From Escherichia phage vB_Eco_TB37, in sequence record OZ035850: a DNA stretch of 64,000 bases. The stretch is one strand, 5' to 3'. Below the pieces are notes generated by a model. That model worked only from the letters and a program-made list of their open reading frames with translations, was not told the origin of the DNA and ran no database searches. Positions 2 to 55,571 of the stretch are shown here, piece by piece (the first letter of the stretch is position 1; each line of letters begins with the position of its first letter). A program made the translations under genes and the position numbers.

Positions 2-1399
2 CAGGCATTTGGTTCTTTCTTAACAGAAGCTGAAATCGGTGGTGACCACGGTTACAATGCTACCAACATCGCTGCAGGTCAGACTTCTGGCGCAGTAACT
101 CAGATTGGCCCAGCTGTTATGGGTATGGTACGTCGTGCTATTCCTAACCTGATTGCTTTCGATATTTGTGGTGTTCAGCCGATGAACAGCCCAACCGGTC
201 AGGTATTCGCACTCCGCGCGGTATATGGTAAAGATCCGATCGCTGCCGGTGCTAAAGAAGCATTCCACCCAATGTATGGTCCAGATGCAATGTTCTCTGG
301 TCAGGGTGCTGCTAAGAAATTCCCAGCTCTGGCTGCTAGCACAGAAACCACAGTAGGTGATATCTATACTCACTTCTTCCAGGACACTGGTACTGTGTAT
401 CTGCAAGCTTCTGCTCAAGTAACAATTAGTGCAAGCGCAACTGATGCAGATAAATTAGATGCTGAAATTAAGAAACAAATGGAAGCTGGTGCACTGGTAG
501 AAATCGCTGAAGGTATGGCTACTTCTATCGCTGAACTCCAGGAAGGTTTCAACGGTTCTACCGATAACCCATGGAATGAAATGGGCTTCCGTATCGATAA
601 ACAAGTTATCGAAGCTAAATCTCGCCAGCTGAAAGCTGCTTACTCTATCGAATTAGCACAAGACCTCCGCGCTGTTCACGGTATGGATGCTGACGCTGAA
701 CTGTCTGGTATTCTGGCTACAGAAATTATGCTGGAAATCAACCGTGAAGTTGTTGATTGGATTAACTACTCCGCACAGGTTGGTAAATCTGGTATGACCC
801 TGACTCCGGGTTCTAAAGCTGGTGTATTTGACTTCCAGGATCCGATTGATATTCGTGGTGCTCGCTGGGCGGGTGAATCCTTTAAAGCTCTGTTGTTCCA
901 GATTGACAAAGAAGCAGTTGAAATTGCTCGTCAAACCGGTCGCGGCGAAGGTAACTTCATTATCGCTTCTCGTAACGTAGTTAACGTACTGGCTTCTGTT
1001 GATACTGGCATTTCTTATGCTGCTCAAGGTTTGGCAACCGGTTTTAATACTGATACTACTAAGTCAGTATTTGCAGGTGTTCTGGGTGGTAAATACCGTG
1101 TATATATCGACCAGTATGCTAAACAGGATTATTTCACTGTAGGTTATAAAGGTCCGAACGAAATGGATGCTGGTATTTACTATGCTCCATATGTAGCTCT
1201 GACTCCGCTGCGTGGTTCCGATCCGAAGAACTTCCAACCAGTAATGGGATTCAAAACTCGTTACGGTATCGGTATCAACCCATTTGCAGAATCCGCTGCT
1301 CAGGCTCCGGCTTCTCGCATTCAGAGTGGTATGCCTTCTATCCTGAACAGCCTTGGTAAGAACGCTTACTTCCGCCGTGTATATGTTAAAGGTATCTAA
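2..1399 (+). CDS. 23: Major capsid protein gp23, 5'-truncated at window edge
   Basis: Frame open from position 2; translation matches T4 gp23 C-terminal region (…GVQPMNSPTGQVFALRAVYGKDP… to …FRRVYVKGI). Confidence 0.96.
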   Translation, partial: QAFGSFLTEAEIGGDHGYNATNIAAGQTSGAVTQIGPAVMGMVRRAIPNLIAFDICGVQPMNSPTGQVFALRAVYGKDPIAAGAKEAFHPMYGPDAMFSGQGAAKKFPALAASTETTVGDIYTHFFQDTGTVYLQASAQVTISASATDADKLDAEIKKQMEAGALVEIAEGMATSIAELQEGFNGSTDNPWNEMGFRIDKQVIEAKSRQLKAAYSIELAQDLRAVHGMDADAELSGILATEIMLEINREVVDWINYSAQVGKSGMTLTPGSKAGVFDFQDPIDIRGARWAGESFKALLFQIDKEAVEIARQTGRGEGNFIIASRNVVNVLASVDTGISYAAQGLATGFNTDTTKSVFAGVLGGKYRVYIDQYAKQDYFTVGYKGPNEMDAGIYYAPYVALTPLRGSDPKNFQPVMGFKTRYGIGINPFAESAAQAPASRIQSGMPSILNSLGKNAYFRRVYVKGI

Positions 1400-1412
1400 T
1401 CTTTGACGATTT

Positions 1413-1444
1413 AAGGGACCTTCGGGTCCCTTTAGTTGTTTTTA
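1413..1444 (+). terminator. Rho-independent terminator after gene 23
   Basis: AGGGACC-TTCG-GGTCCCT hairpin followed by a T-rich tract. Confidence 0.75.
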
Positions 1445-1447
1445 TGG

Positions 1448-1455
1448 TATAAATA
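1448..1455 (+). promoter_or_regulatory. Late promoter (TATAAATA) for gene 24
   Basis: Exact TATAAATA 28 nt upstream of the gene 24 ATG. Confidence 0.7.
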
Positions 1456-1482
1456 AATCATATAAACCAAAAGGAAAGCGCA

Positions 1483-2766
1483 ATGGCTAAAATCAACGAA
1501 CTTCTGCGCGAATCAACCACAACGAATAGCAACTCAATCGGTCGCCCAAATCTCGTTGCTTTGACTCGCGCTACCACTAAATTAATATATTCTGACATTG
1601 TAGCAACGCAAAGAACTAATCAACCTGTTGCTGCTTTTTATGGTATCAAATACCTTAACCCAGACAATGAATTTACATTTAAAACTGGTGCTACTTATGC
1701 TGGCGAAGCTGGATATGTAGACCGAGAACAAATCACAGAATTAACAGAAGAGTCTAAATTAACTCTCAATAAAGGCGATTTATTCAAATATAATAATATC
1801 GTTTATAAAGTATTAGAAGATACACCATTTGCTGATATTGAAGAAAGCGATTTAGAATTAGCTCTTCAGATTGCAATTGTTCTTTTAAAGGTTCGTTTAT
1901 TTTCTGACGCAGCATCAACAAGCAAATTTGAAAGCTCTGATAGTGAAATTGCGGATGCTAGATTCCAGATTAATAAATGGCAAACCGCCGTTAAATCTCG
2001 TAAACTTAAAACTGGCATCACAGTTGAATTAGCACAAGATTTAGAAGCAAATGGATTCGATGCTCCTAATTTCTTGGAAGATTTGCTTGCAACCGAAATG
2101 GCGGATGAAATCAATAAAGATATTCTGCAGTCTTTGATTACAGTGTCAAAACGCTATAAAGTTACAGGAATTACTGATAGTGGATTCATCGATTTGAGTT
2201 ATGCATCTGCACCTGAAGCGGGTCGTTCATTATATCGAATGGTATGTGAAATGGTTTCACATATCCAAAAAGAATCAACTTATACAGCAACATTTTGTGT
2301 AGCTTCAGCTCGTGCTGCTGCGATTCTTGCTGCATCAGGTTGGTTAAAACATAAACCGGAAGATGATAAATATCTTTCACAAAATGCCTACGGGTTCTTA
2401 GCTAATGGTTTACCGCTTTATTGCGATACTAACAGCCCATTAGATTATGTAATCGTTGGTGTAGTAGAAAATATCGGTGAAAAAGAAATTGTTGGATCAA
2501 TTTTCTATGCTCCGTATACAGAAGGTCTCGACTTAGATGACCCTGAACATGTAGGTGCATTTAAAGTTGTTGTTGATCCAGAAAGCTTACAGCCGTCTAT
2601 CGGTTTATTAGTTAGATATGCTTTATCAGCAAATCCTTATACCGTAGCAAAAGATGAAAAAGAAGCAAGAATAATTGACGGTGGAGACATGGATAAAATG
2701 GCTGGTCGTTCAGATTTGTCTGTTTTATTAGGTGTTAAATTACCAAAAATTATTATTGATGAATAA
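1483..2766 (+). CDS. 24: Capsid vertex protein gp24
   Basis: 427 aa, N-terminus MAKINELLRESTTTNS as in T4 gp24; paralogous to gp23; late promoter upstream. Confidence 0.96.
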   Translation: MAKINELLRESTTTNSNSIGRPNLVALTRATTKLIYSDIVATQRTNQPVAAFYGIKYLNPDNEFTFKTGATYAGEAGYVDREQITELTEESKLTLNKGDLFKYNNIVYKVLEDTPFADIEESDLELALQIAIVLLKVRLFSDAASTSKFESSDSEIADARFQINKWQTAVKSRKLKTGITVELAQDLEANGFDAPNFLEDLLATEMADEINKDILQSLITVSKRYKVTGITDSGFIDLSYASAPEAGRSLYRMVCEMVSHIQKESTYTATFCVASARAAAILAASGWLKHKPEDDKYLSQNAYGFLANGLPLYCDTNSPLDYVIVGVVENIGEKEIVGSIFYAPYTEGLDLDDPEHVGAFKVVVDPESLQPSIGLLVRYALSANPYTVAKDEKEARIIDGGDMDKMAGRSDLSVLLGVKLPKIIIDE

Positions 2767-2768
2767 AG

Positions 2769-2797
2769 CAAAGGGACCTTTCGGTCCCTTTTTATTT
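2769..2797. terminator. Bidirectional terminator between gene 24 and rnlB
   Basis: AAGGGACC-TTTC-GGTCCCTT hairpin flanked by A-run and T-run between convergent genes. Confidence 0.75.
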
Positions 2798-3800
2798 AGC
2801 TCACCAACTCAATCCAAGCTGGACGAAGTACATCTTGTACCATTTTAACTAATTCCTTCTTAATCAAAGAAGGATTATCTGCTTGAGTTAGAGTAATACC
2901 TTCACGAGAAGTTTCTTCCAAAATATCTTGAACAGTTAGCCCCATCACCTTTCCAAAATCCTTTGGACCAATTTCGCCAATTTTAGAAATAACGTTATTT
3001 ACCCGGTTCAGTGTAACGTAACAAGCTAAAATTCCCACCAATTTGTTATCAGCTTCTGATAGTTCAACTTTAGCTTTAATAGGCTTATCAGACTTTTTCT
3101 TTTCACTAAATTTGGAATTCTTGCATTTAATCGCTACACGATTGCGATTAGGCAGCCAAGAAGGATAACAAGGTTTCAATACATATCCTTCAGCGGTAAA
3201 TACTTCGCCTTTTGCTTCGGCATTCCAAACGCATTTATTTGCATCAACTAATCCAGCATGGTCTACTGTAAAATTATAATCTTGGACGACAGAATCTAAA
3301 TCATTTGGCAATTTAATAAGTTCTTCAAATTTACCGCGACCTAAAAGTGGAGCCATTTTAAATTTAAACGTATTACAGAATGATTCCATCATATAATCAT
3401 CGACATAAGTCACATCACCACTTTCTGTAGTAACAATAATGTCAAATACATAAAAATCTTTATCGCCATAATCAACATTCTTCTGAATGCCAGGTCCAGC
3501 GAATTCGCCAAAGACTTGATAAGATACAACCGCTGAGGTTTCCATAATATCTTGTACTGCTTTAATGGAATCAGCGTAATTCTTCAAAATAATTTCATAC
3601 CCAAAGAAATCTTCAGCAGGAAGAATCGGTCCAGTACGTTTAGCACAAGTTACTTTATCACGCTCAATAATCAATGAAAAGTTTGTACCATGAATCTTTT
3701 CACGAGCTACCCATTCGCCGCCAGTCAATCCTAAACTGTAAAGTTTTTCAATAAATTTAGAGTTGTAATGATTTTCAAGACTGCTATACTTTTTAAACAT
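2796..3800 (-). CDS. rnlB: RNA ligase 2
   Basis: 334 aa, [17 protein letters not shown]-terminus as T4 Rnl2; nucleotidyltransferase motif I EKIHGTN. Confidence 0.95.
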
Positions 3801-3809
3801 AATTAATCC

Positions 3810-4088
3810 TCAAAATGTAATTTCTAACCAATCACCATCACGCTGATCACTATTGACTTTAAAGCTAAATCCTTCTTTTCTCAGCCAATCACCAATTTCT
3901 TCAGTAATCAATTTATCGCGAGCAGTACAATAATAACTAAAATATGTTTTACCTTGTTCAGCTGCTTTATTAGCAAGTTCCGAAAAATCTTTAATAAAAC
4001 ACTCTAGTTTAAACTGTTTACTTTTAAGTGCTTTTTCGCGTAATTGATTAGCAAAAGATTCATTTTCATAAAGATCATACTGTTCCAT
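3810..4088 (-). CDS. Hypothetical protein (T4 24.2 position)
   Basis: 92-aa ORF in early-gene orientation between rnlB and hoc. Confidence 0.6.
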   Translation of the reverse strand: MEQYDLYENESFANQLREKALKSKQFKLECFIKDFSELANKAAEQGKTYFSYYCTARDKLITEEIGDWLRKEGFSFKVNSDQRDGDWLEITF

Positions 4089-4290
4089 TTTTCACCTTTT
4101 TATTAATATGTCTTTTTCTATAGACAACTTTTTCTCGAGTCTCAAATTTATTTTTAGCAGTCATAGCTCGAGCCCATAATACAGCCACTTCTTTTGCCTG
4201 TAAGTTCAATTCACGAGCAATTTCAATGAATGACTTTCCAGACTCATGAAGAGTAAACACCACAACCTCAGTTCTCATAATCAATCTCAT
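4075..4290 (-). CDS. Hypothetical protein (T4 24.3 position)
   Basis: 71-aa ORF overlapping the preceding ORF by 14 nt. Confidence 0.55.
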   Translation of the reverse strand: MRLIMRTEVVVFTLHESGKSFIEIARELNLQAKEVAVLWARAMTAKNKFETREKVVYRKRHINKKVKNGTV

Positions 4291-4339
4291 GTTATCGAGT
4301 GGGTGCCATTATATACATCATTTTCTGATTGTGTTTTGT

Positions 4340-4376
4340 GTGCTTTCAAAATGAAGAAAGGGGCCGAAGCCCCTAA
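4340..4376 (-). terminator. Terminator downstream of hoc
   Basis: GGGGC-CGAA-GCCCC hairpin followed on the minus strand by a T-rich tract. Confidence 0.55.
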
Positions 4377-4378
4377 GA

Positions 4379-5509
4379 TTATGGATAGGTATAGATGATA
4401 CCAGTTTCTAAAGCAGTTTTATGAATGATGTATCCATTGCGCGATTCTTGAACATCAACTTCTGGGTAGTCTTTCATCATCTTCTGAAGAGTGTAACGAT
4501 GCAAGTAGTACTTACTATCTGGGTCGTCAGTTTTCCAATCTTTACCTTCTTCAGTCATTTTTTGGATTTCATCCATAACCCACCAACCGCACCAGATATA
4601 AGCTGAAGTACGATGTGGAAGAGGATGAACATAAGGTAATTCACCTTCTGGTTCCGGAGCAACTTTATCAGTCACTTGAACTTGGCCTTCTGCTGTAATA
4701 GTTTTGCTATCATAATCAGCGGCGGTAACAGTTGCAGTAACTTCAATGGTTTGACTTCCAATAGATGATGTATCAACGGTGTATACATTAGTTGACCCTT
4801 CTACAGGAGAAGAATCTTTCTTCCATGAATATTCGATTTGTGCTTCTTCTGGAGCATCCGTAACATTAGCCGTAAATGTAGCCGAAGCATCTTGCTGGAC
4901 GTTAATAGAAGGAGGAGTCAATGTAACCTGTGGATTCATTGTTTTCTTATTAACTGTCAATGACACTTCATTAGAAGTAACTTCCTTTGCATCATAATCT
5001 GTCGCTGTTACTTGGGCTACGCATTTAATTCTTTTTACTCCACTTGTAGTTGGAGTATAGCTAAATGTAGCGGAAGTTGCTTCACTAACAGGAGAATCAT
5101 CTACATACCACTGATACGTAGCAGATACACTTGGTGGCTGTGAATCTAAAGCAGCGGTAAATTCAACAGCTGTTCCGATTACTCCAGCATCAGGGCTACC
5201 AGGAGTTACTGCCAAGGTAGTTGTTTGTGTCTTATTTTGAACTGTGATAGTTGTACTAATTTCAGCTGTTTCGGGACTACTATCGGCAACTTGATTGGTT
5301 GCAACTACTTTAATAGTTTTTTGACCGGCAGGTCCTTTTAGTACATAACTAAAAGTTGCTGACGTTTCTTCCTGTGGTGCATCATCAACAGTCCAAGCAT
5401 ATGTAATAGGTCCATCTCCAGTTTGACCACTGGGTGTAGCAGTAAACTGCTGAGTCTGATCTATAACTCCAGTAGGTGTTTTAGGAGTTATATCAACTGT
5501 AAAAGCCAT
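4379..5509 (-). CDS. hoc: Head outer capsid protein Hoc
   Basis: 376 aa; Ig-like repeats and C-terminus …YIIHKTALETGIIYTYP as in T4 Hoc. Confidence 0.95.
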   Translation of the reverse strand: MAFTVDITPKTPTGVIDQTQQFTATPSGQTGDGPITYAWTVDDAPQEETSATFSYVLKGPAGQKTIKVVATNQVADSSPETAEISTTITVQNKTQTTTLAVTPGSPDAGVIGTAVEFTAALDSQPPSVSATYQWYVDDSPVSEATSATFSYTPTTSGVKRIKCVAQVTATDYDAKEVTSNEVSLTVNKKTMNPQVTLTPPSINVQQDASATFTANVTDAPEEAQIEYSWKKDSSPVEGSTNVYTVDTSSIGSQTIEVTATVTAADYDSKTITAEGQVQVTDKVAPEPEGELPYVHPLPHRTSAYIWCGWWVMDEIQKMTEEGKDWKTDDPDSKYYLHRYTLQKMMKDYPEVDVQESRNGYIIHKTALETGIIYTYP

Positions 5510-5518
5510 AAGTTATCC

Positions 5519-6199
5519 TTATTTTAATGTTACGAAAGAAGAATTGCGTGTTTCACGAATTAAAACTGATCCGTCACGGTTAATGTAATAAATTAAGCTA
5601 AATAAAGTTTGGTGTGCTGACGCGTGTTCAAAACTAGTTGGGTGAGATTTCCAATCAGGAGTTTCAGCAATCCATTGATAAATCCACCAAGGAACAGTGC
5701 AGAATCCTGGATTTTTTCCAATCAGCTGAAGATTTGGGCTAAAGTTTTCTGGAAGAGTAAATACAGACGGCTTTTCAGATTCAATAATCTCAGCTACAGC
5801 CTGTTCGAATTTTTCTTCAACAAAAGGAGTATCTTCAATCAAAACATCGGTATTTTCAGGAATTTTATCCGTTTCTACTACTTCAATTTTAATGTCAGAT
5901 TTAACCGGAGAATCAATCAGAAGTGCTGCCTCTGGATTGACTTCTTCATCGTCATATTTTAATCCGTCTGCAGCATCAGCAGCATCAATTAAGTCTTTAA
6001 TAGATAACCCATCAGTCTCTGGCATAGGTTCACTAGCGAGCTTCTGGAGGGCTTCTTCAATATCATTAACGATATTATCAAAAGATTTATTCTTTTTGAC
6101 CTTTATACCAAACTGTTCAGCATATTCAGCTAATTTAGCTTTAGCTTCTTTATTATCATCAAGAGCCTTCAGCTCTGCAATATAATCTTTATCTATCAT
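5519..6199 (-). CDS. inh: Inh, inhibitor of prohead protease
   Basis: 226 aa, position between hoc and uvsW and length match T4 inh. Confidence 0.8.
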   Translation of the reverse strand: MIDKDYIAELKALDDNKEAKAKLAEYAEQFGIKVKKNKSFDNIVNDIEEALQKLASEPMPETDGLSIKDLIDAADAADGLKYDDEEVNPEAALLIDSPVKSDIKIEVVETDKIPENTDVLIEDTPFVEEKFEQAVAEIIESEKPSVFTLPENFSPNLQLIGKNPGFCTVPWWIYQWIAETPDWKSHPTSFEHASAHQTLFSLIYYINRDGSVLIRETRNSSFVTLK

Positions 6200-44472: not shown

Positions 44473-47400
44473 ATGGCCGAGATTAAAAGAAAGTTCAGAG
44501 CAGAAGACGGTCTGGACGCAGGTGGTGATAAAATAATCAACGTAGCTTTAGCTGATCGTACCGTAGGAACTGACGGTGTTAACGTTGATTACTTAATTCA
44601 AGAAAACACAGTTCAACAATACGATCCAACTCGTGGATATTTAAAAGATTTTGTAATCATTTATGATAACCGCTTTTGGGCTGCTATAAATGATATTCCA
44701 AAACCGGCAGGAGCTTTTAATAGCGGACGCTGGAGAGCATTACGTACCGATGCTAACTGGATTACGGTTTCATCTGGTTCATATCAATTAAAATCTGGTG
44801 AAGCTATTTCGGTTAACACCGCAGCTGGTAATGATATTACATTTACTTTACCATCTACCCCAATTGATGGTGATACTATCGTTCTCCAAGATATTGGAGG
44901 AAAACCTGGAGTTAACCAAGTTTTAATTGTAGCTCCGGTGCAAAGTATTGTAAACTTCAGAGGTCAACAAGTACGTTCAGTACTAATGACTCATCCAAAG
45001 TCACAGCTAGTTTTAATTTTTAGTAATCGTCTGTGGCAAATGTATGTTGCTGATTATAGTAGAGAAGCTGTAGTTGTAACACCAGCGAATACTTATCAAG
45101 CGCAATCAAATGATTTTATCGTACGTAGATTTACTTCTGCTGCACCAATTAATGTTAAACTTCCAAGATTTGCTAATCATGGCGATATTATTAATTTCGT
45201 TGATTTAGATAAACTGAATCCACTTTATCATACAATTGTTACTACATATGATGAAACGACTTCAGTACAAGAAGTTGGAACTCATTCCATTGAAGGCCGT
45301 ACATCGATTGACGGTTTCTTGATGTTTGATGATAATGAGAAATTGTGGAGATTGTTTGACGGGGATAGTAAAGCACGTTTACGCATTATAACGACTAATT
45401 CTAATATTCGTCCAAACGAAGAAGTTATGGTATTTGGTGCGAATAACGGAACAACTCAGACAATTGAACTTCAGCTTCCTACTGATATTTCTGTTGGTGA
45501 TACTGTTAAAATTTCCATGAATTACATGAGAAAAGGACAAACAGTTAAAATCAAAGCTGCAGGCGAAGATAAAATTGCTTCTTCAGTTCAATTGCTGCAA
45601 TTCCCAAAACGCTCAGAATATCCACCTGAAGCTGAATGGGTTACAGTTCAAGAATTAGTTTTTAACGGTGAAACTAATTATGTTCCAGTTTTACAACTTG
45701 CTTATATAGAAGATTCTGATGGAAAATACTGGGTTGTACAGCAAAACGTTCCAACTGTAGAAAGAGTTGATTCTTTAAATGATTCTACTAGAGCAAGATT
45801 AGGCGTAATTGCTTTAGCTACACAAGCTCAAGCTAATGTCGATTTAGAAAATTCTCCACAAAAAGAATTAGCAATTACTCCAGAAACATTAGCTAACCGT
45901 ACTGCTACAGAAACTCGCAGAGGTATCGCAAGAATAGCAACTACTGCTCAAGTGAATCAGAACACCACATTCTCTTTTGCTGATGATATTATCATCACTC
46001 CTAAAAAGCTGAATGAAAGAACTGCTACAGAAACTCGCAGAGGTGTCGCAGAAATTGCTACGCAGCAAGAAACTAATACAGGAACCGATGATACTACAAT
46101 CATTACTCCTAAAAAGCTTCAAGCTCGTCAAGGTTCTGAATCATTATCTGGTATTGTAACTTTTGTATCTACTGCAGGTGCTACTCCAGCTTCTAGCCGT
46201 GAATTAAATGGTACGAATGTTTATAATAAAAACACTAATAATTTAGTTGTTTCACCTAAAGCTTTGGATCAGTATAAAGCTACTCCAACGCAGCAAGGTG
46301 CAGTAATTTTAGCAGTTGAAAGTGAAGTAATTGCTGGACAAAGCCAAGAAGGATGGGCAAATGCTGTTGTAACGCCAGAAACGTTACATAAAAAGACATC
46401 AACCGATGGAAGAATTGGTTTAATTGAAATTGCTACGCAAAGTGAAGTTAATACAGGAACTGATTATACTCGTGCAGTCACTCCTAAAACTTTAAATGAC
46501 CGTAGAGCAACTGAAAGTTTAAGTGGTATAGCTGAAATTGCTACGCAAGTTGAATTCGACGCAGGCGTCGACGATACTCGTATCTCTACACCATTAAAAA
46601 TTAAAACCAGATTTAATAATACTGATCGTACTTCTGTTGTTGCTCTATCTGGATTAGTTGAATCAGGAACTCTCTGGGACCATTATACCCTTAATATTCT
46701 TGAAGCAAATGAGACACAGCGTGGTACACTTCGTGTAGCTACACAGGTTGAAGCTGCTGCAGGAACATTAGATAATGTTTTAATAACTCCTAAAAAGCTT
46801 TTAGGTACTAAATCTACCGAATCGCAAGAAGGTGTTATTAAAGTTGCAACTCAGTCTGAAACTGTGACTGGAACGTCAGCAAATACTGCTGTATCTCCAA
46901 AAAATTTAAAATGGATTGTGCAGAGTGAACCTACTTGGGCAGCTACTACTGCGATAAGGGGCTTTGTTAAAACTTCATCTGGTTCAATTACATTCGTTGG
47001 TAATGATACAGTCGGTTCTACCCAAGATTTAGAACTGTATGAGAAAAATAGTTATGCGGTATCACCATATGAATTAAACCGTGTATTAGCAAATTATTTG
47101 CCATTAAAAGCAAAAGCTGTAGATAGTAATTTATTGGATGGTCTAGATTCATCTCAGTTCATTCGTAGGGATATTGCACAGACGGTTAATGGTTCACTAA
47201 CCTTAACCCAACAAACGAATCTGAGTGCCCCTCTTGTATCATCTAGTACTGCTACGTTTGGTGGATCAGTTTCGGCAAATAGTACATTAACTATTTCTAA
47301 TACTGGAACGGCAACTCGTCTGATTTTTGAGAAAGGACCTCAAACTGGAACTAACCCAGCACAGACGATGACTATCAGAGTTTGGGGAAATCAGTTTGGT

Positions 47401-48342
47401 GGCGGATCAGATACAACACGTTCTACTGTATTTGAAGTTGGTGATGAAACATCTAATCACTTTTATTCTCAACGTAATAAAGCTGGTAATATTACGTTTA
47501 GCATTAATGGTACTGTGATGCCAATAAATGTTAACGCTTCCGGTTCATTGAATGCGAATGGCGTAGCAACATTTGGTAGTTCAGTTACAGCCAATGGTGA
47601 ATTCATTAGCAAGTCTGCAAATGCTTTCAGAGCAATAAACGGTGATTATGGATTCTTTATCAGGAATGATGGCGGCAGCACATATTTTATGCTTACTGCA
47701 TCTGGTGATCAGACCGGTGGATTTAATGGATTACGTCCATTATCAATTAATAATCAATCCGGTCAAGTCACAATTGGTGAAAGCTTAATCATTGCCAAAG
47801 GTGCTACTATAAATTCAGGCGGTTTAACTGTTAACTCGAGAATTCGTTCTCAGGGCACTAAAACATCTGACTTATATACCCGCGCACCAACATCTGATAC
47901 TGTAGGATTCTGGTCAATTGATATTAACGATTCAGCCACTTATAACCAGTTCCCGGGTTATTTTAAAATGGTTGAAAAAACTAATGAAGTGACTGGGCTT
48001 CCATACTTAGAACGTGGCGAAGAAGTTAAATCTCCTGGTACACTGACTCAGTTTGGTAACACACTTGATTCGCTTTACCAAGATTGGATTACTTATCCAA
48101 CGACGCCAGAAGCGCGTACCACTCGCTGGACACGTACATGGCAGAAAACCAAAAACTCTTGGTCAAGTTTTGTTCAGGTATTTGACGGAGGTAACCCTCC
48201 TCAACCATCTGATATTGGTGCTTTACCATCTGATAATGCTACAATGGGGAATCTTACTATTCGTGATTTCTTGCGAATTGGTAATGTTCGCATTATTCCT
48301 GACCCAGTGAATAAAACTGTTAAATTTGAATGGGTTGAATAA
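44473..48342 (+). CDS. 34: Long tail fibre proximal subunit gp34
   Basis: 1289 aa; TATAAATA 35 nt upstream; internal 120-bp repeats. Confidence 0.95.
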   Translation: MAEIKRKFRAEDGLDAGGDKIINVALADRTVGTDGVNVDYLIQENTVQQYDPTRGYLKDFVIIYDNRFWAAINDIPKPAGAFNSGRWRALRTDANWITVSSGSYQLKSGEAISVNTAAGNDITFTLPSTPIDGDTIVLQDIGGKPGVNQVLIVAPVQSIVNFRGQQVRSVLMTHPKSQLVLIFSNRLWQMYVADYSREAVVVTPANTYQAQSNDFIVRRFTSAAPINVKLPRFANHGDIINFVDLDKLNPLYHTIVTTYDETTSVQEVGTHSIEGRTSIDGFLMFDDNEKLWRLFDGDSKARLRIITTNSNIRPNEEVMVFGANNGTTQTIELQLPTDISVGDTVKISMNYMRKGQTVKIKAAGEDKIASSVQLLQFPKRSEYPPEAEWVTVQELVFNGETNYVPVLQLAYIEDSDGKYWVVQQNVPTVERVDSLNDSTRARLGVIALATQAQANVDLENSPQKELAITPETLANRTATETRRGIARIATTAQVNQNTTFSFADDIIITPKKLNERTATETRRGVAEIATQQETNTGTDDTTIITPKKLQARQGSESLSGIVTFVSTAGATPASSRELNGTNVYNKNTNNLVVSPKALDQYKATPTQQGAVILAVESEVIAGQSQEGWANAVVTPETLHKKTSTDGRIGLIEIATQSEVNTGTDYTRAVTPKTLNDRRATESLSGIAEIATQVEFDAGVDDTRISTPLKIKTRFNNTDRTSVVALSGLVESGTLWDHYTLNILEANETQRGTLRVATQVEAAAGTLDNVLITPKKLLGTKSTESQEGVIKVATQSETVTGTSANTAVSPKNLKWIVQSEPTWAATTAIRGFVKTSSGSITFVGNDTVGSTQDLELYEKNSYAVSPYELNRVLANYLPLKAKAVDSNLLDGLDSSQFIRRDIAQTVNGSLTLTQQTNLSAPLVSSSTATFGGSVSANSTLTISNTGTATRLIFEKGPQTGTNPAQTMTIRVWGNQFGGGSDTTRSTVFEVGDETSNHFYSQRNKAGNITFSINGTVMPINVNASGSLNANGVATFGSSVTANGEFISKSANAFRAINGDYGFFIRNDGGSTYFMLTASGDQTGGFNGLRPLSINNQSGQVTIGESLIIAKGATINSGGLTVNSRIRSQGTKTSDLYTRAPTSDTVGFWSIDINDSATYNQFPGYFKMVEKTNEVTGLPYLERGEEVKSPGTLTQFGNTLDSLYQDWITYPTTPEARTTRWTRTWQKTKNSWSSFVQVFDGGNPPQPSDIGALPSDNATMGNLTIRDFLRIGNVRIIPDPVNKTVKFEWVE
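45901..46044 (+). repeat. Internal 120-bp direct repeat within gene 34
   Basis: ACTGCTACAGAAACTCGCAGAGGT at 45901 and again at 46021; encodes RTATETRRG…ITPKKL repeats. Confidence 0.8.
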
Positions 48343-48350
48343 GAGGTATT

Positions 48351-49466
48351 ATGGAAAAATTTATGGCAGAGTTTGGACAAGGATATGTCCAAACGCCATT
48401 TTTATCGGAAAGCAATTCAGTAAGATACAAAATAAGTATAGCGGGTTCTTGCCCGCTTTCTACAGCAGGACCATACGTTAAATTTCAGGATAATCCTGTC
48501 GGAAGTCAAACATTTAGCGCAGGCCTTCATTTAAGAGTTTTTGACCCTTCCACCGGAGCATTAGTTGATAGTAAGTCATATGCTTTTTCGACTTCAAATG
48601 ATACTACATCAGCTGCTTTTGTTAGTTTTATGAATTCTTTGACGAATAATAGAATTGTTGCTATATTGACTAGCGGAAAGGTTAATTTTCCTCCTGAAGT
48701 AGTATCTTGGTTAAGAACCGCCGGAACGTCTGCTTTTCCATCTGATTCTATATTGTCAAGATTCGACGTATCATATGCTGCTTTTTATACTTCTTCTAAA
48801 AGAGCTATCGCATTAGAGCATGTTAAACTGAGTAATAGAAAAAGCACAGATGATTATCAAACTATTTTAGATGTTGTATTTGACAGTTTAGAAGATGTAG
48901 GAGCTACCGGGTTTCCAAGAAGAACGTATGAAAGCGTTGAGCAATTCATGTCAGCGGTTGGTGGAACTAATAACGAAATTGCGCGTCTACCAACTTCAGC
49001 TGCTATAAGTAAATTATCTGATTATAATTTAATTCCTGGTGATGTTCTTTATCTTAAAGCCCAGTTATATGCTGATGCTGATTTACTTGCTCTTGGAACT
49101 ACAAATATATCTATCCGTTTTTATAATGCATCTAACGGATATATTTCTTCAACACAGGCTGAATTTACTGGGCAAGCTGGGTCATGGGAATTAAAGGAAG
49201 ATTATGTAGTTGTTCCAGAAAACGCAGTAGGATTTACGATATATGCACAGAGAACTGCACAAGCTGGCCAAGGCGGCATGAGAAATTTAAGCTTTTCTGA
49301 AGTATCAAGAAACGGCGGCATTTCAAAACCTGCTGAATTTGGCGTCAACGGTATTCGTGTTAATTATATCTGTGAATCTGCTTCACCTCCGGATATAATG
49401 GTACTTCCTACGCAAACATCATCTAAAACTGGTAAAGTGTTTGGGCAAGAATTTAGAGAAGTATAA
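48351..49466 (+). CDS. 35: Long tail fibre hinge protein gp35
   Basis: 371 aa, position and length as T4 gp35; terminator hairpin downstream. Confidence 0.9.
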   Translation: MEKFMAEFGQGYVQTPFLSESNSVRYKISIAGSCPLSTAGPYVKFQDNPVGSQTFSAGLHLRVFDPSTGALVDSKSYAFSTSNDTTSAAFVSFMNSLTNNRIVAILTSGKVNFPPEVVSWLRTAGTSAFPSDSILSRFDVSYAAFYTSSKRAIALEHVKLSNRKSTDDYQTILDVVFDSLEDVGATGFPRRTYESVEQFMSAVGGTNNEIARLPTSAAISKLSDYNLIPGDVLYLKAQLYADADLLALGTTNISIRFYNASNGYISSTQAEFTGQAGSWELKEDYVVVPENAVGFTIYAQRTAQAGQGGMRNLSFSEVSRNGGISKPAEFGVNGIRVNYICESASPPDIMVLPTQTSSKTGKVFGQEFREV

Positions 49467-49470
49467 ATTG

Positions 49471-49498
49471 AGGGAGCCTTCGGGTTCCCTTTTTCTTT
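49471..49498 (+). terminator. Rho-independent terminator after gene 35
   Basis: AGGGAGCC-TTCG-GGTTCCCT hairpin followed by TTTTTCTTT. Confidence 0.75.
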
Positions 49499-49505
49499 AT
49501 AAATA
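49498..49505 (+). promoter_or_regulatory. Late promoter (TATAAATA) for gene 36
   Basis: Exact TATAAATA directly after the gene 35 terminator, 24 nt before the gene 36 ATG. Confidence 0.7.
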
Positions 49506-49528: not shown

Positions 49529-50191
49529 ATGGCTGATTTAAAAGTAGGTTCAACAACCGGAGGCTCTGTCATTTGGCATCAAGGAAATTTTCCATTGAAT
49601 CCAGCCGGTGACGATGTACTCTATAAATCATTTAAACTATATTCAGAATATAATAAACCACAAGCTGCTGATAACGATTTCGTTTCTAAAGCTAATGGTG
49701 GTACTTACGCCGCGACTGTTCGATTTAATGGAGGAGTACATGTTCCTACTATAGGTAGTAGTCAACAGTGCGGTGTTTATCCAGGTAACGGTGATGCAGC
49801 TACTTTTGCTATGGCAAATATTGACATCGTTTCGTGGAATGGTATTGGTTTTAAATCATCACAAGGTTCAGCAGACCGAACTGTTGTAATTAATGCACGT
49901 AATGGTGATATTAGTACAAAAGGCGTTGTGACAGCAGTAGGTCAAATAAGAAGTAATGCAGTTGCTCCTATAGCAGTGAATGACCTTACTAGAAAGGACT
50001 ATGTTGATGGAGCAATAAATACTGTTACAGCAAATGCGAACTCTAGAGTGTTACGATCTGGCGACACTATGACGGGTAACTTAACCGCACCAAACTTTTT
50101 CTCGCAGAATCCCGCATCTCAACCTTCACATGTTCCACGATTTGACCAAATCGTAATTAAGGATTCTGTTCAAGATTTCGGCTATTATTAA
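49529..50191 (+). CDS. 36: Long tail fibre distal connector gp36
   Basis: 220 aa; TATAAATA upstream. Confidence 0.9.
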
Positions 50192-50199
50192 GAGGACTT

Positions 50200-53100
50200 A
50201 TGGCTACTTTAAAACAAATACAATTTAAAAGAAGCAAAACCGCAGGTGCACGTCCTGCTGCTTCAGTATTAGCCGAAGGTGAATTGGCTATAAACTTAAA
50301 AGATAGAACAATTTTTACTAAAGATGATTCAGGAAATATCATCGATCTAGGTATTGCTAAAGGCGGTCAAATTGATGGAAATGTAACTATCAATGGTCTT
50401 TTGAGGTTAAACGGTGATTATGTACAAACAGGTGGAATGACCGTAAATGGACCTATTGGTTCTACTAATGGCGTAACTGCAAAAGTTTTCAGATCTACAC
50501 AGGGTTCATTTTATGCAAGAGCAACAAACGATACTGCAAATGCCCATCTTTGGTTTGAAAATACAAATGGCTCAGAACGTGGCGTTTTATATTCAAAACC
50601 GCAGTCTGAAAATGAAGGCGTAATTACAATGCGTGTTCGTCAAGGAACCGCTGCGGGAGCTCAAAATTCAGAATTTCATTTCATTTCTACTGATGGTGGT
50701 ATCTTCCAGGCACGCAAATTAACTGCTTTAACTTCTATTAGTACACCAACTATTAGTGTTAATTTAATTAATCATGATTCTAAAGCCTTTGGACAATACG
50801 ATTCACAATCATTGGTTCAGTATGTTTATCCTGGAACTGGTGAAACAAATGGTGTAAACTATCTTCGTAAAGTTCGATCTAAGTCAGGCGGAACTATTTA
50901 CCATGAAATTTGTACAGCTCAGACTGGACTGGCAGATGAAATGTCATGGTGGACTGGTAATACACCGTTATTTAAACTATATGGTATTCGTAACGACGGT
51001 AGAATGATTATTCGCAATAGCTTGGCCATTGGTACTGTGACGCAAGGGTTTCCGTCAAGCGATTATGGAAATGCTGGGGCACTAGGAAATATATTTCTTG
51101 CTTTAGGCGATAATGGAACTGGTCTAGTTTATAGAAAAACTGGTGTATTTGATTTCGTTGGTTCTGGTTTATCTTTGGCATCTATCACACCTGATAGTTT
51201 CCGTAGTACTCGTAAAGCAATATTTGGACGCTCAGAAGACCAAGGTACAACATGGATTATGCCTGGAACGAACGCTGCATTTTTGTCAGTTCAAACCCAA
51301 GCTGATGAAAACACTGCTGGAGACGGTCAGACACATATTGGCTATAACTCAGGCGGAAAAATGAACCACTATTTCCGTGGTAAAGGCAAAACCAATATTA
51401 ATACCCAAGAAGGCATGGAAGTTAACCCTGGTATTTTGAAATTGGTAACTGGCTCTAATAACGTACAGTTTTATGCTGACGGAACAGTATCTTCAATACA
51501 AAGAATTAAATTTGATAACGGATTAGTTCTTACTGGTGCTAGACCCGACGGTATTCAACTTGACGCTCCTACAACAACAGATGGCACTAAAACTATATTG
51601 TGGGCCGGCGGTACTCGCCCAGGTCAGAATAAAAGTTATCTATCTATCAAAGCATGGGGTAATGCCTTTAATGCATCTGGCGATCGTGCTCGTGAAACAG
51701 TTTTTGAAGTATCAGATGGACAAGGTTACCATTTTTATTCTCAACGAGTTGCTCCCGGATCAGGTTCTACCGTCGGACCTATTCAATTTCGAGTTAATGG
51801 TGGTTTATTAACTTCTGGTGGTATTACATCATCTGGTTCTATTGTTACTGAATCAAGTTTAGTTGCAAATAATGGATTATCTGTAAATGGTCAGGCTAAA
51901 TTCGGTGGAACGGCAGATGCATTAAGAATTTGGAATGCCGAATACGGTGCTATTTTCCGTCGCTCAGAAACAGCATTGCATATTATCCCGACTCCTAAAG
52001 ATGCTGGTGAAAGTGGTGGAATAAGTAATCTCCGCCCGTTAAGTATTAGTCTTAATAATGGTATGGTACAAATGCGCCATTCTGTTACGTTAGGCGATGA
52101 TGGCGCTGGCGGTAATATGATTACTGTGGACAACGATAACAAACATGTTGTTGTTGCTAGTAATAGTCGTATTGCTCCTAATTTCAGAATGCAATTAGGA
52201 CAATCATCTTATATTGATGTAGAATGTACTGATAGAGTTCGCCCGGCTGGAACAGGTTCATTTGCTTCTCAGAATAATGAAAATGTCCGGGCGCCGTTGT
52301 ATATGAATATAGAGCGTACTGCTACTTCTGAATACATTCCTATTATTAAACAACGTTATGTTCAAGGTAACGGTTGCTATTCATTGGGGACTTTAATTAA
52401 TAATGGTAATTTCCGAGTTCATTATCATGAAGGCGGAGATAACGGTTCTTCAGGTCCACAGACTGCTGATTTTGGATGGGAATTTATTAAAAACGGTGAT
52501 TTTATTTCCCCTGGTAAATTAGGTGCTGGTGCGGTTCGTATTGGTACTGACGGTAATATCACGGGCGGTTCATTACCTAACTTTGCTAACTTGAACTTGA
52601 CATTAGACCGTAAAGTCAATACCCGAATGGTTTCTTATTCAGGTACTGGTGGTTGGTATAAATTAGCCACTGTAACAATGCCACAATCCACTTCAACCGT
52701 CACATTCGAAATTGCTGGTGGTAATGGCTATAATGTCAACACCCCACACCAATGCGTTACTTCGAAAATTGTTTTAAGAACTTCGAACAATAACCCGAAA
52801 GGTATTAACGCTGTTGTTTGGTCGATGGATACCGGTCAGGGTATTAAGAATGTTGCAACGGTTAATACATCAGGCGATGTTTATGACATCTATGTAAACG
52901 TTGGTACTTATGCTCAGGCGCTAGCAGTTTCTTATTATGCTACTCCTAATGCTACCATTAACCAGGTATTTGCAACGGACCAACCGGGTGCAACAGAAAC
53001 TGCGGTTGAACTTCCTGAGACGGCTATTCAAGGACAGGTTGCTAGTGTTCTGAACAACTTGGCTCCTACCCCTAACGGTGTGAAGCGTTATGAAGCCGAT

Positions 53101-54060
53101 TCTGAAATAGCTATTAATAGCCAAACCGGTATTCGTATCAGAAGCAATGGCGATAAAACTGGTTCTGTGGCTACAATGTTACGAAATGACGGCGGCAGTT
53201 TTTATATTCTGTTTACAGATAAAAATGCCACCGATGGCGCAGCAACTGTTAATGGTGATTGGAATAGTAAACGTCCTTTCGCAATTAACTTAACAACCGG
53301 CGAAGTGATGATGAATAATGGCATAGCTGTTCGCAGCGCTGCTTTATTCTATAATAGCATAAACGTCAAAGATAATGGTTCTATTAACTTTGATAAATCA
53401 GGCGCTAACCCGAGAAATATGAGAATATTTCATGCTGGTGATGCTTCTCGCGGTAACCGTATTGAAATTGCTGATGAAACTAACTATATTGCTTACTTTG
53501 AAAAAACTCCAGGTGGAGCTAACCGCTTTGTAGTAAATAATGCTACTGTGGCTGGTGTTAATCAAATGAATTCATTTGGTATTAACATCAATAACGCACT
53601 TGGTGGAAACAGTATAGCATTTGGTGATAATGACACTGGCATTAAACAATCCGGTGACGGACTTCTTGATATCATTACTAACGCCGCACGACGAATGAGA
53701 TTCCAGACGGGTGACACTTATTCTGACATGAATATAAATGCTCCAAACGTTTATATTCGTTCTGATATTCGTTTGAAATCTAATTTCAGACCTATTGAAA
53801 ATGCTCTTGAAAAGGTTGAGCAGCTTGATGGTTTAATCTATGATAAATCTGACTATATAGGTGGTGAAATTGTTCAGACTGAAGCAGGTGTTATTGCTCA
53901 GAAATTGAACGAAGTATTACCTGAAGCAGTTCGTGAAGTTGAAGATATTAAGGGTAATAAAATACTCACTATTTCTTCTCAATCCCAGATTGCTCTTCTA
54001 ATTGAAGCTGTGAAAACACTTTCTGCTCGTGTAAAAGAACTTGAATCTAAACTTATGTAA
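50200..54060 (+). CDS. 37: Long tail fibre distal subunit gp37 (T2-type, long form)
   Basis: 1286 aa; shares the gp34/gp37 homology block (…TVFEV.D…HFYSQR…); C-terminal helical domain. Confidence 0.9.
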
Positions 54061-54061
54061 A

Positions 54062-54089
54062 AGAGGGCTTCGGCCCTCTAAGGATTTTT
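54062..54089 (+). terminator. Hairpin between genes 37 and 38 (attenuator or RBS-structuring)
   Basis: AGAGGGC-TTCG-GCCCTCT hairpin, then AAGGA and the gene 38 ATG. Confidence 0.45.
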
Positions 54090-54090
54090 A

Positions 54091-54882
54091 ATGGCAATTG
54101 TAGGTGTTCCTGGCTGGATTGGCGAATCTGCCGTGAATGAAACTGGACAACGCTGGATGGATGCTGCGATGAAAGCTGTTCGTGTTTCAGTTCCCGGTTG
54201 GATGAGTTCAATGGCTGGACAATCTAAAGAAGTATATTATAGCGTTGGTGCTAGCAATTCTTACAATAAAGACACACTAATAAATTGGATAAAAGCCCAA
54301 GGCAGTACTCCTGTTGTTATTACTATTACAGGAAATATTGTTTCTCAATCTACTGGTGTTCCATGCTTAGATTTTCCTAGCTCATTAACTAATGCATATG
54401 TTACCTTAAATATTAATAGTGGGGTTCATGTATTAGGTCGGGGAGGAAATGGCGGAAGTAACTCTGCTGGCGGAGCAGGAGGAACTGCAATAAATAACGG
54501 AATTGGAACTCGTTTAAGAATAAACAATAATGGTATTATTGGTGGCGGCGGAGGTGGCGGCGCTGGTGCTAGATACCATCCTTTCCCTCAAATGGATATG
54601 ATATTTGGTGGCGGCGGAGGTCGTCCATTTGGCGCAGCTGGCGCAGCAGGAGGTGGCGCAGCGGCAGCATCCGCTGGTACAATTTCTGCTCCTGGTAAAG
54701 GTACTGTTTCTGGGGTTCACTATGGAGGAAATGGTGGAGATTTGGGAGCTGCTGGCAAATCTTCATATATTCAAGGTGGTACTGGAGGAACTGTTCACTC
54801 GGGCGGTGCGGCTGGTAAAGCTGTTACCGGTAATGCTCCAACTTGGACTAAAGTTGGTACAATATATGGTTCAAGAGTATAA
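54091..54882 (+). CDS. 38: Tail fibre adhesin gp38 (T2-type, glycine-rich)
   Basis: 263 aa; several poly-Gly/Ala tracts (GGGGGGGAGA, FGGGGGRPFGAAGAAGGG) separating variable segments. Confidence 0.85.
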   Translation: MAIVGVPGWIGESAVNETGQRWMDAAMKAVRVSVPGWMSSMAGQSKEVYYSVGASNSYNKDTLINWIKAQGSTPVVITITGNIVSQSTGVPCLDFPSSLTNAYVTLNINSGVHVLGRGGNGGSNSAGGAGGTAINNGIGTRLRINNNGIIGGGGGGGAGARYHPFPQMDMIFGGGGGRPFGAAGAAGGGAAAASAGTISAPGKGTVSGVHYGGNGGDLGAAGKSSYIQGGTGGTVHSGGAAGKAVTGNAPTWTKVGTIYGSRV

Positions 54883-54914
54883 TTTTTGAATAAATATCCT
54901 TAAAAGGAGGGTCT

Positions 54915-55571
54915 ATGGCAGCACCTAGAATATCATTTTCGCCCTCTGATATTCTATTTGGTGTTCTAGATCGCTTGTTCAAAGATAACGCTACCGGGAA
55001 GGTTCTTGCCTCCCGGGTAGCTGTCGTAATTCTTTTATTTATGATGGCGATTGTTTGGTATAGGGGAGATAGTTTCTTTGAGTACTATAAGCAATCAAAG
55101 TATGAAACATACAGTGAAATTATTGAAAAGGAAAGAAATGCACGCTTTGAATCTGTCGCCCTGGAACAACTCCAGATAGTTCATATATCATCTGAGGCAG
55201 ACTTTAGTGCGGTGTATTCTTTCCGCCCTAAAAACTTAAACTATTTTGTTGATATTATAGCATACGAAGGAAGATTACCTTCAACAATAACTGAAAAATC
55301 ACTTGGAGGATATCCTGTTGATAAAACTATGGATGAATATACAGTTCATTTAAATGGACGTCATTATTATTCTGACTCAAAATTTGCTTTTTTACCAACT
55401 AAAAAGCCTACTCCCGAAATAAACTACATGTACAGTTGTCCATATTTTAATTTGGATAATATCTATGCTGGAACGATAACCATGTACTGGTATAGAAATG
55501 ATCATATAAGTAATGACCGCCTTGAATCAATATGTGCTCAGGCGGCCAGAATATTAGGAAGGGCTAAATAA
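54915..55571 (+). CDS. t: Holin T
   Basis: 218 aa; single N-terminal TM segment; MAAPRISFSPSDILFGVLDRL as T4 T. Confidence 0.95.
   Translation: MAAPRISFSPSDILFGVLDRLFKDNATGKVLASRVAVVILLFMMAIVWYRGDSFFEYYKQSKYETYSEIIEKERNARFESVALEQLQIVHISSEADFSAVYSFRPKNLNYFVDIIAYEGRLPSTITEKSLGGYPVDKTMDEYTVHLNGRHYYSDSKFAFLPTKKPTPEINYMYSCPYFNLDNIYAGTITMYWYRNDHISNDRLESICAQAARILGRAK

Follow-up and report, generated by a model that had tools for sequence, protein, structure and literature searches.

In phage T4, gp38 is an assembly chaperone of 183 aa that does not become part of the virion, and it is the tip of gp37 that binds the receptor. In T2, K3, T6, S16, and PP01, in contrast, gp38 was demonstrated to be located at the fiber tip of the virion and to function in adsorption. 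The S16 protein has an N-terminal three-helix bundle with three apex tryptophans that plug into the gp37 trimer and a β-helix of five rings, two long excursions of which form a three-layer polyglycine-II lattice from glycine-rich motifs; its hypervariable segments are distal loops presumed to contact the receptor (PMC6851490).

Here we analyzed a stretch of 64,000 nucleotides of Escherichia phage vB_Eco_TB37 (OZ035850), referred to below as the window, in which an earlier note had proposed a glycine-rich adhesin gene. Our results make it highly probable that gene 38 of the window encodes the receptor-recognizing tip adhesin of a Tequatrovirus long tail fiber, a monomeric protein of the T2/S16 type that uses Tsx. 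As such it is a textbook T2-type adhesin, and several accessions with its annotated sequence exist already.

Gene 38 and the tail fiber gene block

Gene 38 belongs to a late tail fiber block with the gene order g36-g37-g38-t. The features of this region, in coordinates of the window, are the following:

44473-48342, gene 34
48351-49466, gene 35
49498-49505, + strand, match to the T4-type late promoter consensus TATAAATA, 24 nt before the start of gene 36
49529-50191, gene 36 (Pfam Phage_T4_gp36)
50200-54060, + strand, gene 37, distal subunit of the long tail fiber, 1286 aa (open reading frame; gp37 annotated in syntenic phages)
53761-54057, + strand, intramolecular chaperone domain of gp37 (Peptidase_S74), aa 1188-1286 (Pfam PF13884, E = 2e-14, aa 1188-1245)
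54062-54079, + strand, intercistronic hairpin with a UUCG tetraloop, AGAGGGC-UUCG-GCCCUCU (minimum free energy -13.4 kcal/mol, 7-bp stem, z = -1.7)
54091-54882, + strand, gene 38, T2/S16-type tail fiber tip adhesin (open reading frame of 263 aa, Pfam and PHROG matches)
54915-55571, + strand, gene t, holin, conserved downstream flank (Pfam Phage_holin_T, E = 1e-116)

The open reading frame of gene 38 comprises 263 codons between the ATG at 54091 and the TAA ending at 54882 and is preceded by the Shine-Dalgarno sequence AAGGA (54080-54084). Glycine accounts for 23.2% of the encoded residues, which confirms the glycine-rich protein of 263 aa that the earlier note had placed here. The glycine content is 9.6% in aa 1-115 and 33.8% in aa 116-263, where glycine and alanine together make up 48%. 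Among the 41 open reading frames of at least 150 aa in the window, gp38 is the most glycine-rich, and since the runner-up reaches only 11.8%, this composition is not due to chance. The glycine/alanine tracts are located at aa 118-131, 151-160, 173-177, 181-196, 212-222, 229-233, and 238-242, and their codons explain the raised GC content of the 3′ part of the gene (0.50 versus 0.36 in the window). Three further open reading frames of 65 to 94 aa overlap gene 38 (54605-54889 on the + strand, 54514-54720 and 54569-54766 on the - strand). They coincide with the GC-rich tracts of glycine and alanine codons, look like compositional artefacts of these codons, and were dismissed as embedded genes.

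Between the late promoter match at 49498-49505 and gene 38 no further match was found, and none lies directly upstream of gene 38. This arrangement suggests that genes 36, 37, and 38, and possibly t, are cotranscribed from the late promoter upstream of gene 36. The promoter motif occurs 12 times in the window versus 9 ± 3.6 times expected by chance, so it is not enriched and a single match is weak on its own. The UUCG hairpin sits in the 30-nt gap that follows the gene 37 stop codon, ahead of the AAGGA of gene 38. Very stable intercistronic hairpins are known from T4 mRNAs, and the one described here might shield the upstream message or affect the translation of gene 38. Scans of the whole 64 kb (1-64000) detected neither a tRNA gene nor an Rfam family at the gathering threshold, so that group I introns and small RNAs of the kinds listed for some T-even genomes are lacking in this stretch.

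The C-terminal part of gp37 just upstream of the chaperone domain aligns to the S16 gp37 tip in 6F45_A (E = 2e-9). The chaperone domain itself, which is also present at the C terminus of the likewise long T2 gp37, opens with SDIRLK, and the motif SDxRLK is invariant among seven gp37 proteins. T2 gp37 and endosialidase-type chaperone domains are known to undergo C-terminal cleavage. By analogy, gp37 of the window would cleave itself before S1188 (YIR/SDIRLKS), which would release 99 residues and leave a mature protein of 1187 residues. In addition, gp37 holds two stretches that resemble the trimerization domain of gp34 (Pfam Gp34_trimer; best at aa 492-616).

Family membership and predicted fold of gp38

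In profile searches, gp38 matched the Pfam families GP38 (PF05268; E = 8e-69; 232 bits at a cut-off of 25; profile positions 1-218 of 218) and Gp38_N (PF21721; E = 7e-18; 64.7 bits at a cut-off of 25; positions 1-40 of 40) as well as phrog_2056, described as "tail fiber protein; host specificity" (E = 2e-101; positions 1-267 of 267). The NCBIfam search returned no model for either this protein or T4 gp38. Alignment with the adhesins of T2, T6, and M1, which had been proposed as a check, gave full-length matches to T2 (63% identity), T6 (56%), and M1, and the same was true for S16 (49%); identity to PP01 gp38 was about 39-47%.

When the sequence was searched against solved structures, only 6F45_D (S16 gp38 in its tip complex with gp37, E = 1e-48) and 9V85 (receptor-binding domain of PP01 gp38, E = 7e-32) were retrieved. 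An AlphaFold2 model built from a family alignment of 93 sequences (pLDDT 93, pTM 0.87) led to the same two entries in a Foldseek search of the PDB, 6F45_D (E = 2e-23, TM-score 0.78/0.82) and 9V85 (E = 3e-19), besides which no match below E = 3 was obtained there. According to the model, gp38 adopts the fold of the S16 and PP01 proteins, a β-helix combined with a polyglycine-II sandwich, and shares their three-domain layout (TM-scores of the model, 0.78-0.82). The domains are:

54091-54225, + strand, N-terminal attachment domain, predicted three-helix bundle, aa 1-45 (Gp38_N match at aa 1-42; helices in the model)
54226-54435, + strand, central β-helix domain, first part, aa 46-115 (β strands in the model; aligns to the S16 gp38 β-helix)
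54436-54831, + strand, glycine-rich specificity domain, predicted polyglycine-II sandwich plus the remaining β-helix turns, aa 116-247 (entropy, invariant glycine columns, Foldseek)
54832-54882, + strand, conserved C-terminal strands (NAPTW..VGTIYGSRV), aa 248-263, and stop codon (kept in all references; entropy 0.90 bit)

The helices of the N-terminal domain comprise aa 10-18, 23-29, and 38-41 in the AlphaFold2 model. Tryptophans W9, W22, and W37 are invariant in an alignment of eight sequences (the window, T2, T6, Bas43, AV114, ADUt, Bas45, and S16), and W9 and W22 are at least 90% conserved across the 93 homologues. By analogy to the tryptophans in the S16 structure, aa 1-45 with these three residues probably dock on the gp37 trimer.

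The name of gene 38 and its place between genes 37 and t, which is also that of T4 gene 38, would be compatible with a T4-type chaperone that folds gp37, stays outside the virion, and has no role in receptor recognition. Name and map position are, however, all that the two proteins have in common. The best BLASTP alignment with T4 gp38, the outcome on which the adhesin proposal had been made to depend, had an E value of 13. T4 gp38 matched phrog_105 ("tail fiber assembly"), phrog_7290, and phrog_1807, whereas the protein studied here matched none of these three and belongs to phrog_2056. A T4-type identity is thereby refuted at the sequence level. Moreover, the predicted fold is that of the S16 and PP01 adhesins, gp37 of the window has a chaperone domain of its own, and T6 gene 38 amber mutants form normal-looking virions that cannot adsorb (PMC3157838). 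We consider a chaperone role of this kind next to impossible. Fold, pattern of conserved and variable segments, and gene neighborhood are all those of a T2/S16-type tip adhesin, in support of the T2/K3/Ox2-type identity that the earlier note had proposed.

Conserved glycine motifs and variable loops

The glycine-rich domain alternates between conserved and variable segments. Five glycine-rich motifs are conserved: GRGGNG (aa 116-121) together with GG (aa 130-131), G7 (aa 151-157), GGGGGRPFG (aa 173-181), GGNGGDLGAAG (aa 212-222), and GGAAG (aa 238-242). Across the 93 family members their mean column entropy is 0.18-0.97 bit versus 1.9-2.8 bit for the intervening segments, which also contain nearly all insertions and deletions of these homologues. 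The bounds of the variable loops were transferred by profile alignment from the crystallographic loops A to E of PP01 and are approximate, as this alignment crosses poorly alignable segments:

54454-54477, + strand, loop A (HVS1), aa 122-129, GSNSAGGA (mapped from PP01 loop A, W119-I124)
54565-54606, + strand, loop B (HVS2), aa 159-172, GARYHPFPQMDMIF (mean entropy 2.57 bit)
54643-54678, + strand, loop C (HVS3a), aa 185-196, AAGGGAAAASAG (from PP01 loop C; entropy 1.93 bit)
54703-54723, + strand, loop D (HVS3b), aa 205-211, TVSGVHY (from PP01 loop D; entropy 2.83 bit)
54757-54801, + strand, loop E (HVS4), aa 223-237, KSSYIQGGTGGTVHS (from the PP01 mapping; holds Q228)

The entropy of loop A peaks at aa 123-128, and the main insertion/deletion hotspot of the family follows aa 207, at loop D. 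Loop C is rich in glycine and alanine and specific to this allele, with at most 5 of 12 residues identical to any reference. In PP01, loop E controls the specificity for OmpC (PMC12892980). The entropy profile of the 93 members bears out the earlier description of glycine/alanine tracts that separate variable segments, with two exceptions: the tracts AAGGGAAAASAG (aa 185-196) and GGTGG (aa 229-233) do not separate loops but lie inside loops C and E, respectively.

Assignment of the receptor

The gp38 proteins of JLBYU24 (UGO55595.1), vB_Eco_Geo (CAL1328833.1), and vB_Eco_T-01 are 100% identical to that of the window and are encoded at the same position between g37 and t; the exact sequence is present on 10 contigs of a large collection. 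RB18 and Shfl2 gp38 are 98.1% identical. A single residue distinguishes the proteins of Bas43 and Kelasse, which in Bas43 (TadeuszReichstein, QXV84823.1) is the exchange Q228K. The AV109, AV114, and AV115 proteins (WPK34987.1), from the genus Mosigvirus, differ at three residues. In AV114 and AV115 these are V48I, Y49H, and V52I, and aa 53-263 with every loop are identical.

Receptor data are available for several of these phages. According to the supplementary table of the BASEL study, the primary receptor of Bas43 is Tsx (PMC8594841), and AV114 and AV115 cannot infect a tsx deletion mutant of ECOR4 (PMC10844046). Since near-identical proteins were tested by experiment, the receptor of the window allele can be named: it is very likely the nucleoside channel Tsx, although the call is a strong one only because all loops are identical to those of AV114. 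The data for AV114, AV115, and Bas43 come from other genomic backgrounds with other gp37 proteins (1286 aa in the window versus 1312 aa in JLBYU24 and Bas43 and 1257 aa in AV114).

Loop B points to Tsx as well, independently of these data but with less weight. It carries Y-x-P-F-[PS]-Q-M-x-[LM]-x-F, a motif that the window protein has in common with the Tsx-binding adhesins of T6, Bas35 (WilhelmHis), and JK38 and that the adhesins for OmpA, FadL, and OmpC lack, the core Y-x-P-F-[PS]-Q-M being found in the T6-like adhesins of Bas35 and JK38 just as in the window; loop B of JK38 reads GGYYSPFSQMKLTF. Loop B is identical at 7 to 8 of 14 positions to Bas35 and T6, both of which use Tsx, but at only 1 to 3 of 14 to the adhesins for OmpA (Bas45, M1), FadL (T2), and OmpC (PP01, S16). 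Loop B is the best candidate for the contact with Tsx.

The remaining comparisons set the window protein apart from each of the reference adhesins. T6 gp38 shares family, fold, and receptor, the latter predicted in the case of the window; T6 is known to bind Tsx in the area of loops 6 and 7 of that channel. Its loops C, D, and E are nevertheless unrelated (2/12, 2/7, and 3/15 identical residues), and the N-terminal half of the window protein is T2-like rather than T6-like. T2 gp38 has the same architecture and is 74% identical over the N-terminal 148 aa. The two proteins nevertheless diverge in every variable loop (loop B, 1/14; loop E, 0/15), and T2 uses FadL/OmpF as receptor versus Tsx predicted here. 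S16 (Salmonella) and PP01 (E. coli O157) both bind OmpC and have loops that resemble those of the window protein neither in sequence nor in length. The T6-type Tsx adhesins are nearly uniform according to Trojet et al. Because loops C, D, and E match no reference, T6-type Tsx binders included, the window protein represents, on sequence grounds, another subtype of Tsx-binding adhesin besides the T6 type.

The expectation of the earlier note that receptor choice depends on the variable segments is supported by published swaps and mutants (PMC3157838; PMC12892980; preprint 10.64898/2026.04.02.716166). A phage whose gp38 was exchanged from HVS2 onward used OmpA instead of Tsx, and the single HVS3 substitution Q206L in RB51/RB68 changed the receptor from OmpF to OmpW (preprint 10.64898/2026.04.02.716166). 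PST gained OmpA compared to T6 and uses both Tsx and OmpA. As single loop substitutions can switch or widen specificity, near-identity of gp38 is not proof of a receptor. The protein might accordingly be an adhesin of this family that in nature binds OmpA, lipopolysaccharide, or another β-barrel protein in place of Tsx or besides it, with loops C and E conferring a second specificity. The dissimilarity of loops C, D, and E to those of all references, the existence of two-receptor members (besides PST, T2 with FadL and OmpF), the ease of switching by single residues, and the residual plating of some Tevenvirinae on hosts lacking the primary receptor are in line with such a view. On the other hand, AV114 and AV115, which have the same loops, and Bas43, which differs at one residue, lost infectivity on tsx mutants in two independent studies with the hosts ECOR4 and K-12, and a second protein receptor is unreported for these three phages. 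A receptor other than Tsx, or in addition to it, is therefore improbable, and we retain Tsx as the predicted receptor.

Loop B is the only loop shared between the window protein and the classical T6-type Tsx adhesins. A speculative extension, which we consider rather unlikely, is that the protein is a natural loop chimera in which recognition of Tsx resides in loop B alone and can be transplanted with it, whereas loops C and E together with the residue Q228/K228 adjust the range of Tsx variants or additional surface structures that the protein accepts. If loop B alone were sufficient, it would represent a minimal, transplantable Tsx-targeting element, and tuning by loops C and E would explain differing host ranges among Tsx phages.

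The earlier note had also expected gp38 to predict host range. This holds for the primary receptor but not for the whole host range, because infection patterns differ among phages whose gp38 is identical (PMC12032242). The short-fiber allele, surface polysaccharides, and host defenses also affect host range.

Mosaicism of the tail fiber region

The tail fiber region was compared with eight genomes by sliding-window nucleotide comparison with collinear filtering. In the phage collection, no genome exceeded about 94% identity throughout the 49-58 kb stretch. Shigella phage JK38 (MK962755.1) is 97-100% identical at the 3′ end of gene 37 (53100-54100), with 99.3% identity in the segment for the gp37 tip and the chaperone domain (53400-54090). 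In gene 38, the identity to JK38 is 91-94% in the 5′ part, falls to 58-79% at ~54400-54800, and returns to 96-100% from ~54800 onward. JLBYU24, Bas43, and AV114 behave in the opposite manner: all three are 97-100% identical at ~54400-54800, whereas upstream of gene 38 the identity to the phages with near-identical gp38 falls to 68-82% (3′ end of gene 37, JLBYU24 and Bas43), and the flanks of gene 38 in the Mosigvirus AV114 are 66-82% identical. In the OmpA phage Bas45, 90-95% identity in the 5′ half of gene 38 is followed by 62-65% in the loop region. These shifts in identity argue that the loop-encoding segment of ~400 bp moved as a recombination cassette across genera and that the breakpoints, which are sharp in the comparison with JK38, lie within conserved regions of gene 38. 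The modular design of gp38 has been proposed to permit such cassette exchange (PMC3157838).

The gp37 shaft region (50800-53100) is a patchwork in which the best match per 200-bp bin varies between ADUt, Bas45, Bas43, and AV114, and many bins are less than 80% identical to all eight compared genomes. Gene 37 of the JK38 record is annotated as two overlapping coding sequences (1170-3890 and 3877-5661 in coordinates of the compared locus), which may reflect a frameshift or a sequencing error, unlike the single uninterrupted frame of 1286 codons in the window.

Discussion

The results are consistent with the following course of events. Genes 36, 37, and 38 would be expressed late in infection, and gp37 would trimerize with the aid of its C-terminal chaperone domain (aa 1188-1286), which would then be cut off. 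A single gp38 would cap the exposed gp37 tip via its three-helix bundle, W9, W22, and W37 entering three equivalent pockets. The β-helix and the polyglycine-II lattice would serve as a rigid scaffold presenting loops A to E at the fiber end. The loops would bind a β-barrel protein of the E. coli outer membrane, predicted to be Tsx for the window allele, and this reversible binding by the long fibers would lead to binding of the short fibers and sheath contraction.

The sharply delimited swap of the ~400-bp loop segment compared to JK38 illustrates how cassettes are exchanged in nature, a process now imitated by engineers and a principle already published. With a Tsx-type adhesin, the primary receptor of the phage is predicted, and loss of tsx is the expected commonest route to bacterial resistance. 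Resistance to the phage is also predicted for hosts without a functional tsx gene, E. coli B REL606 among them, and for use in phage cocktails it should be paired with phages of other receptors.
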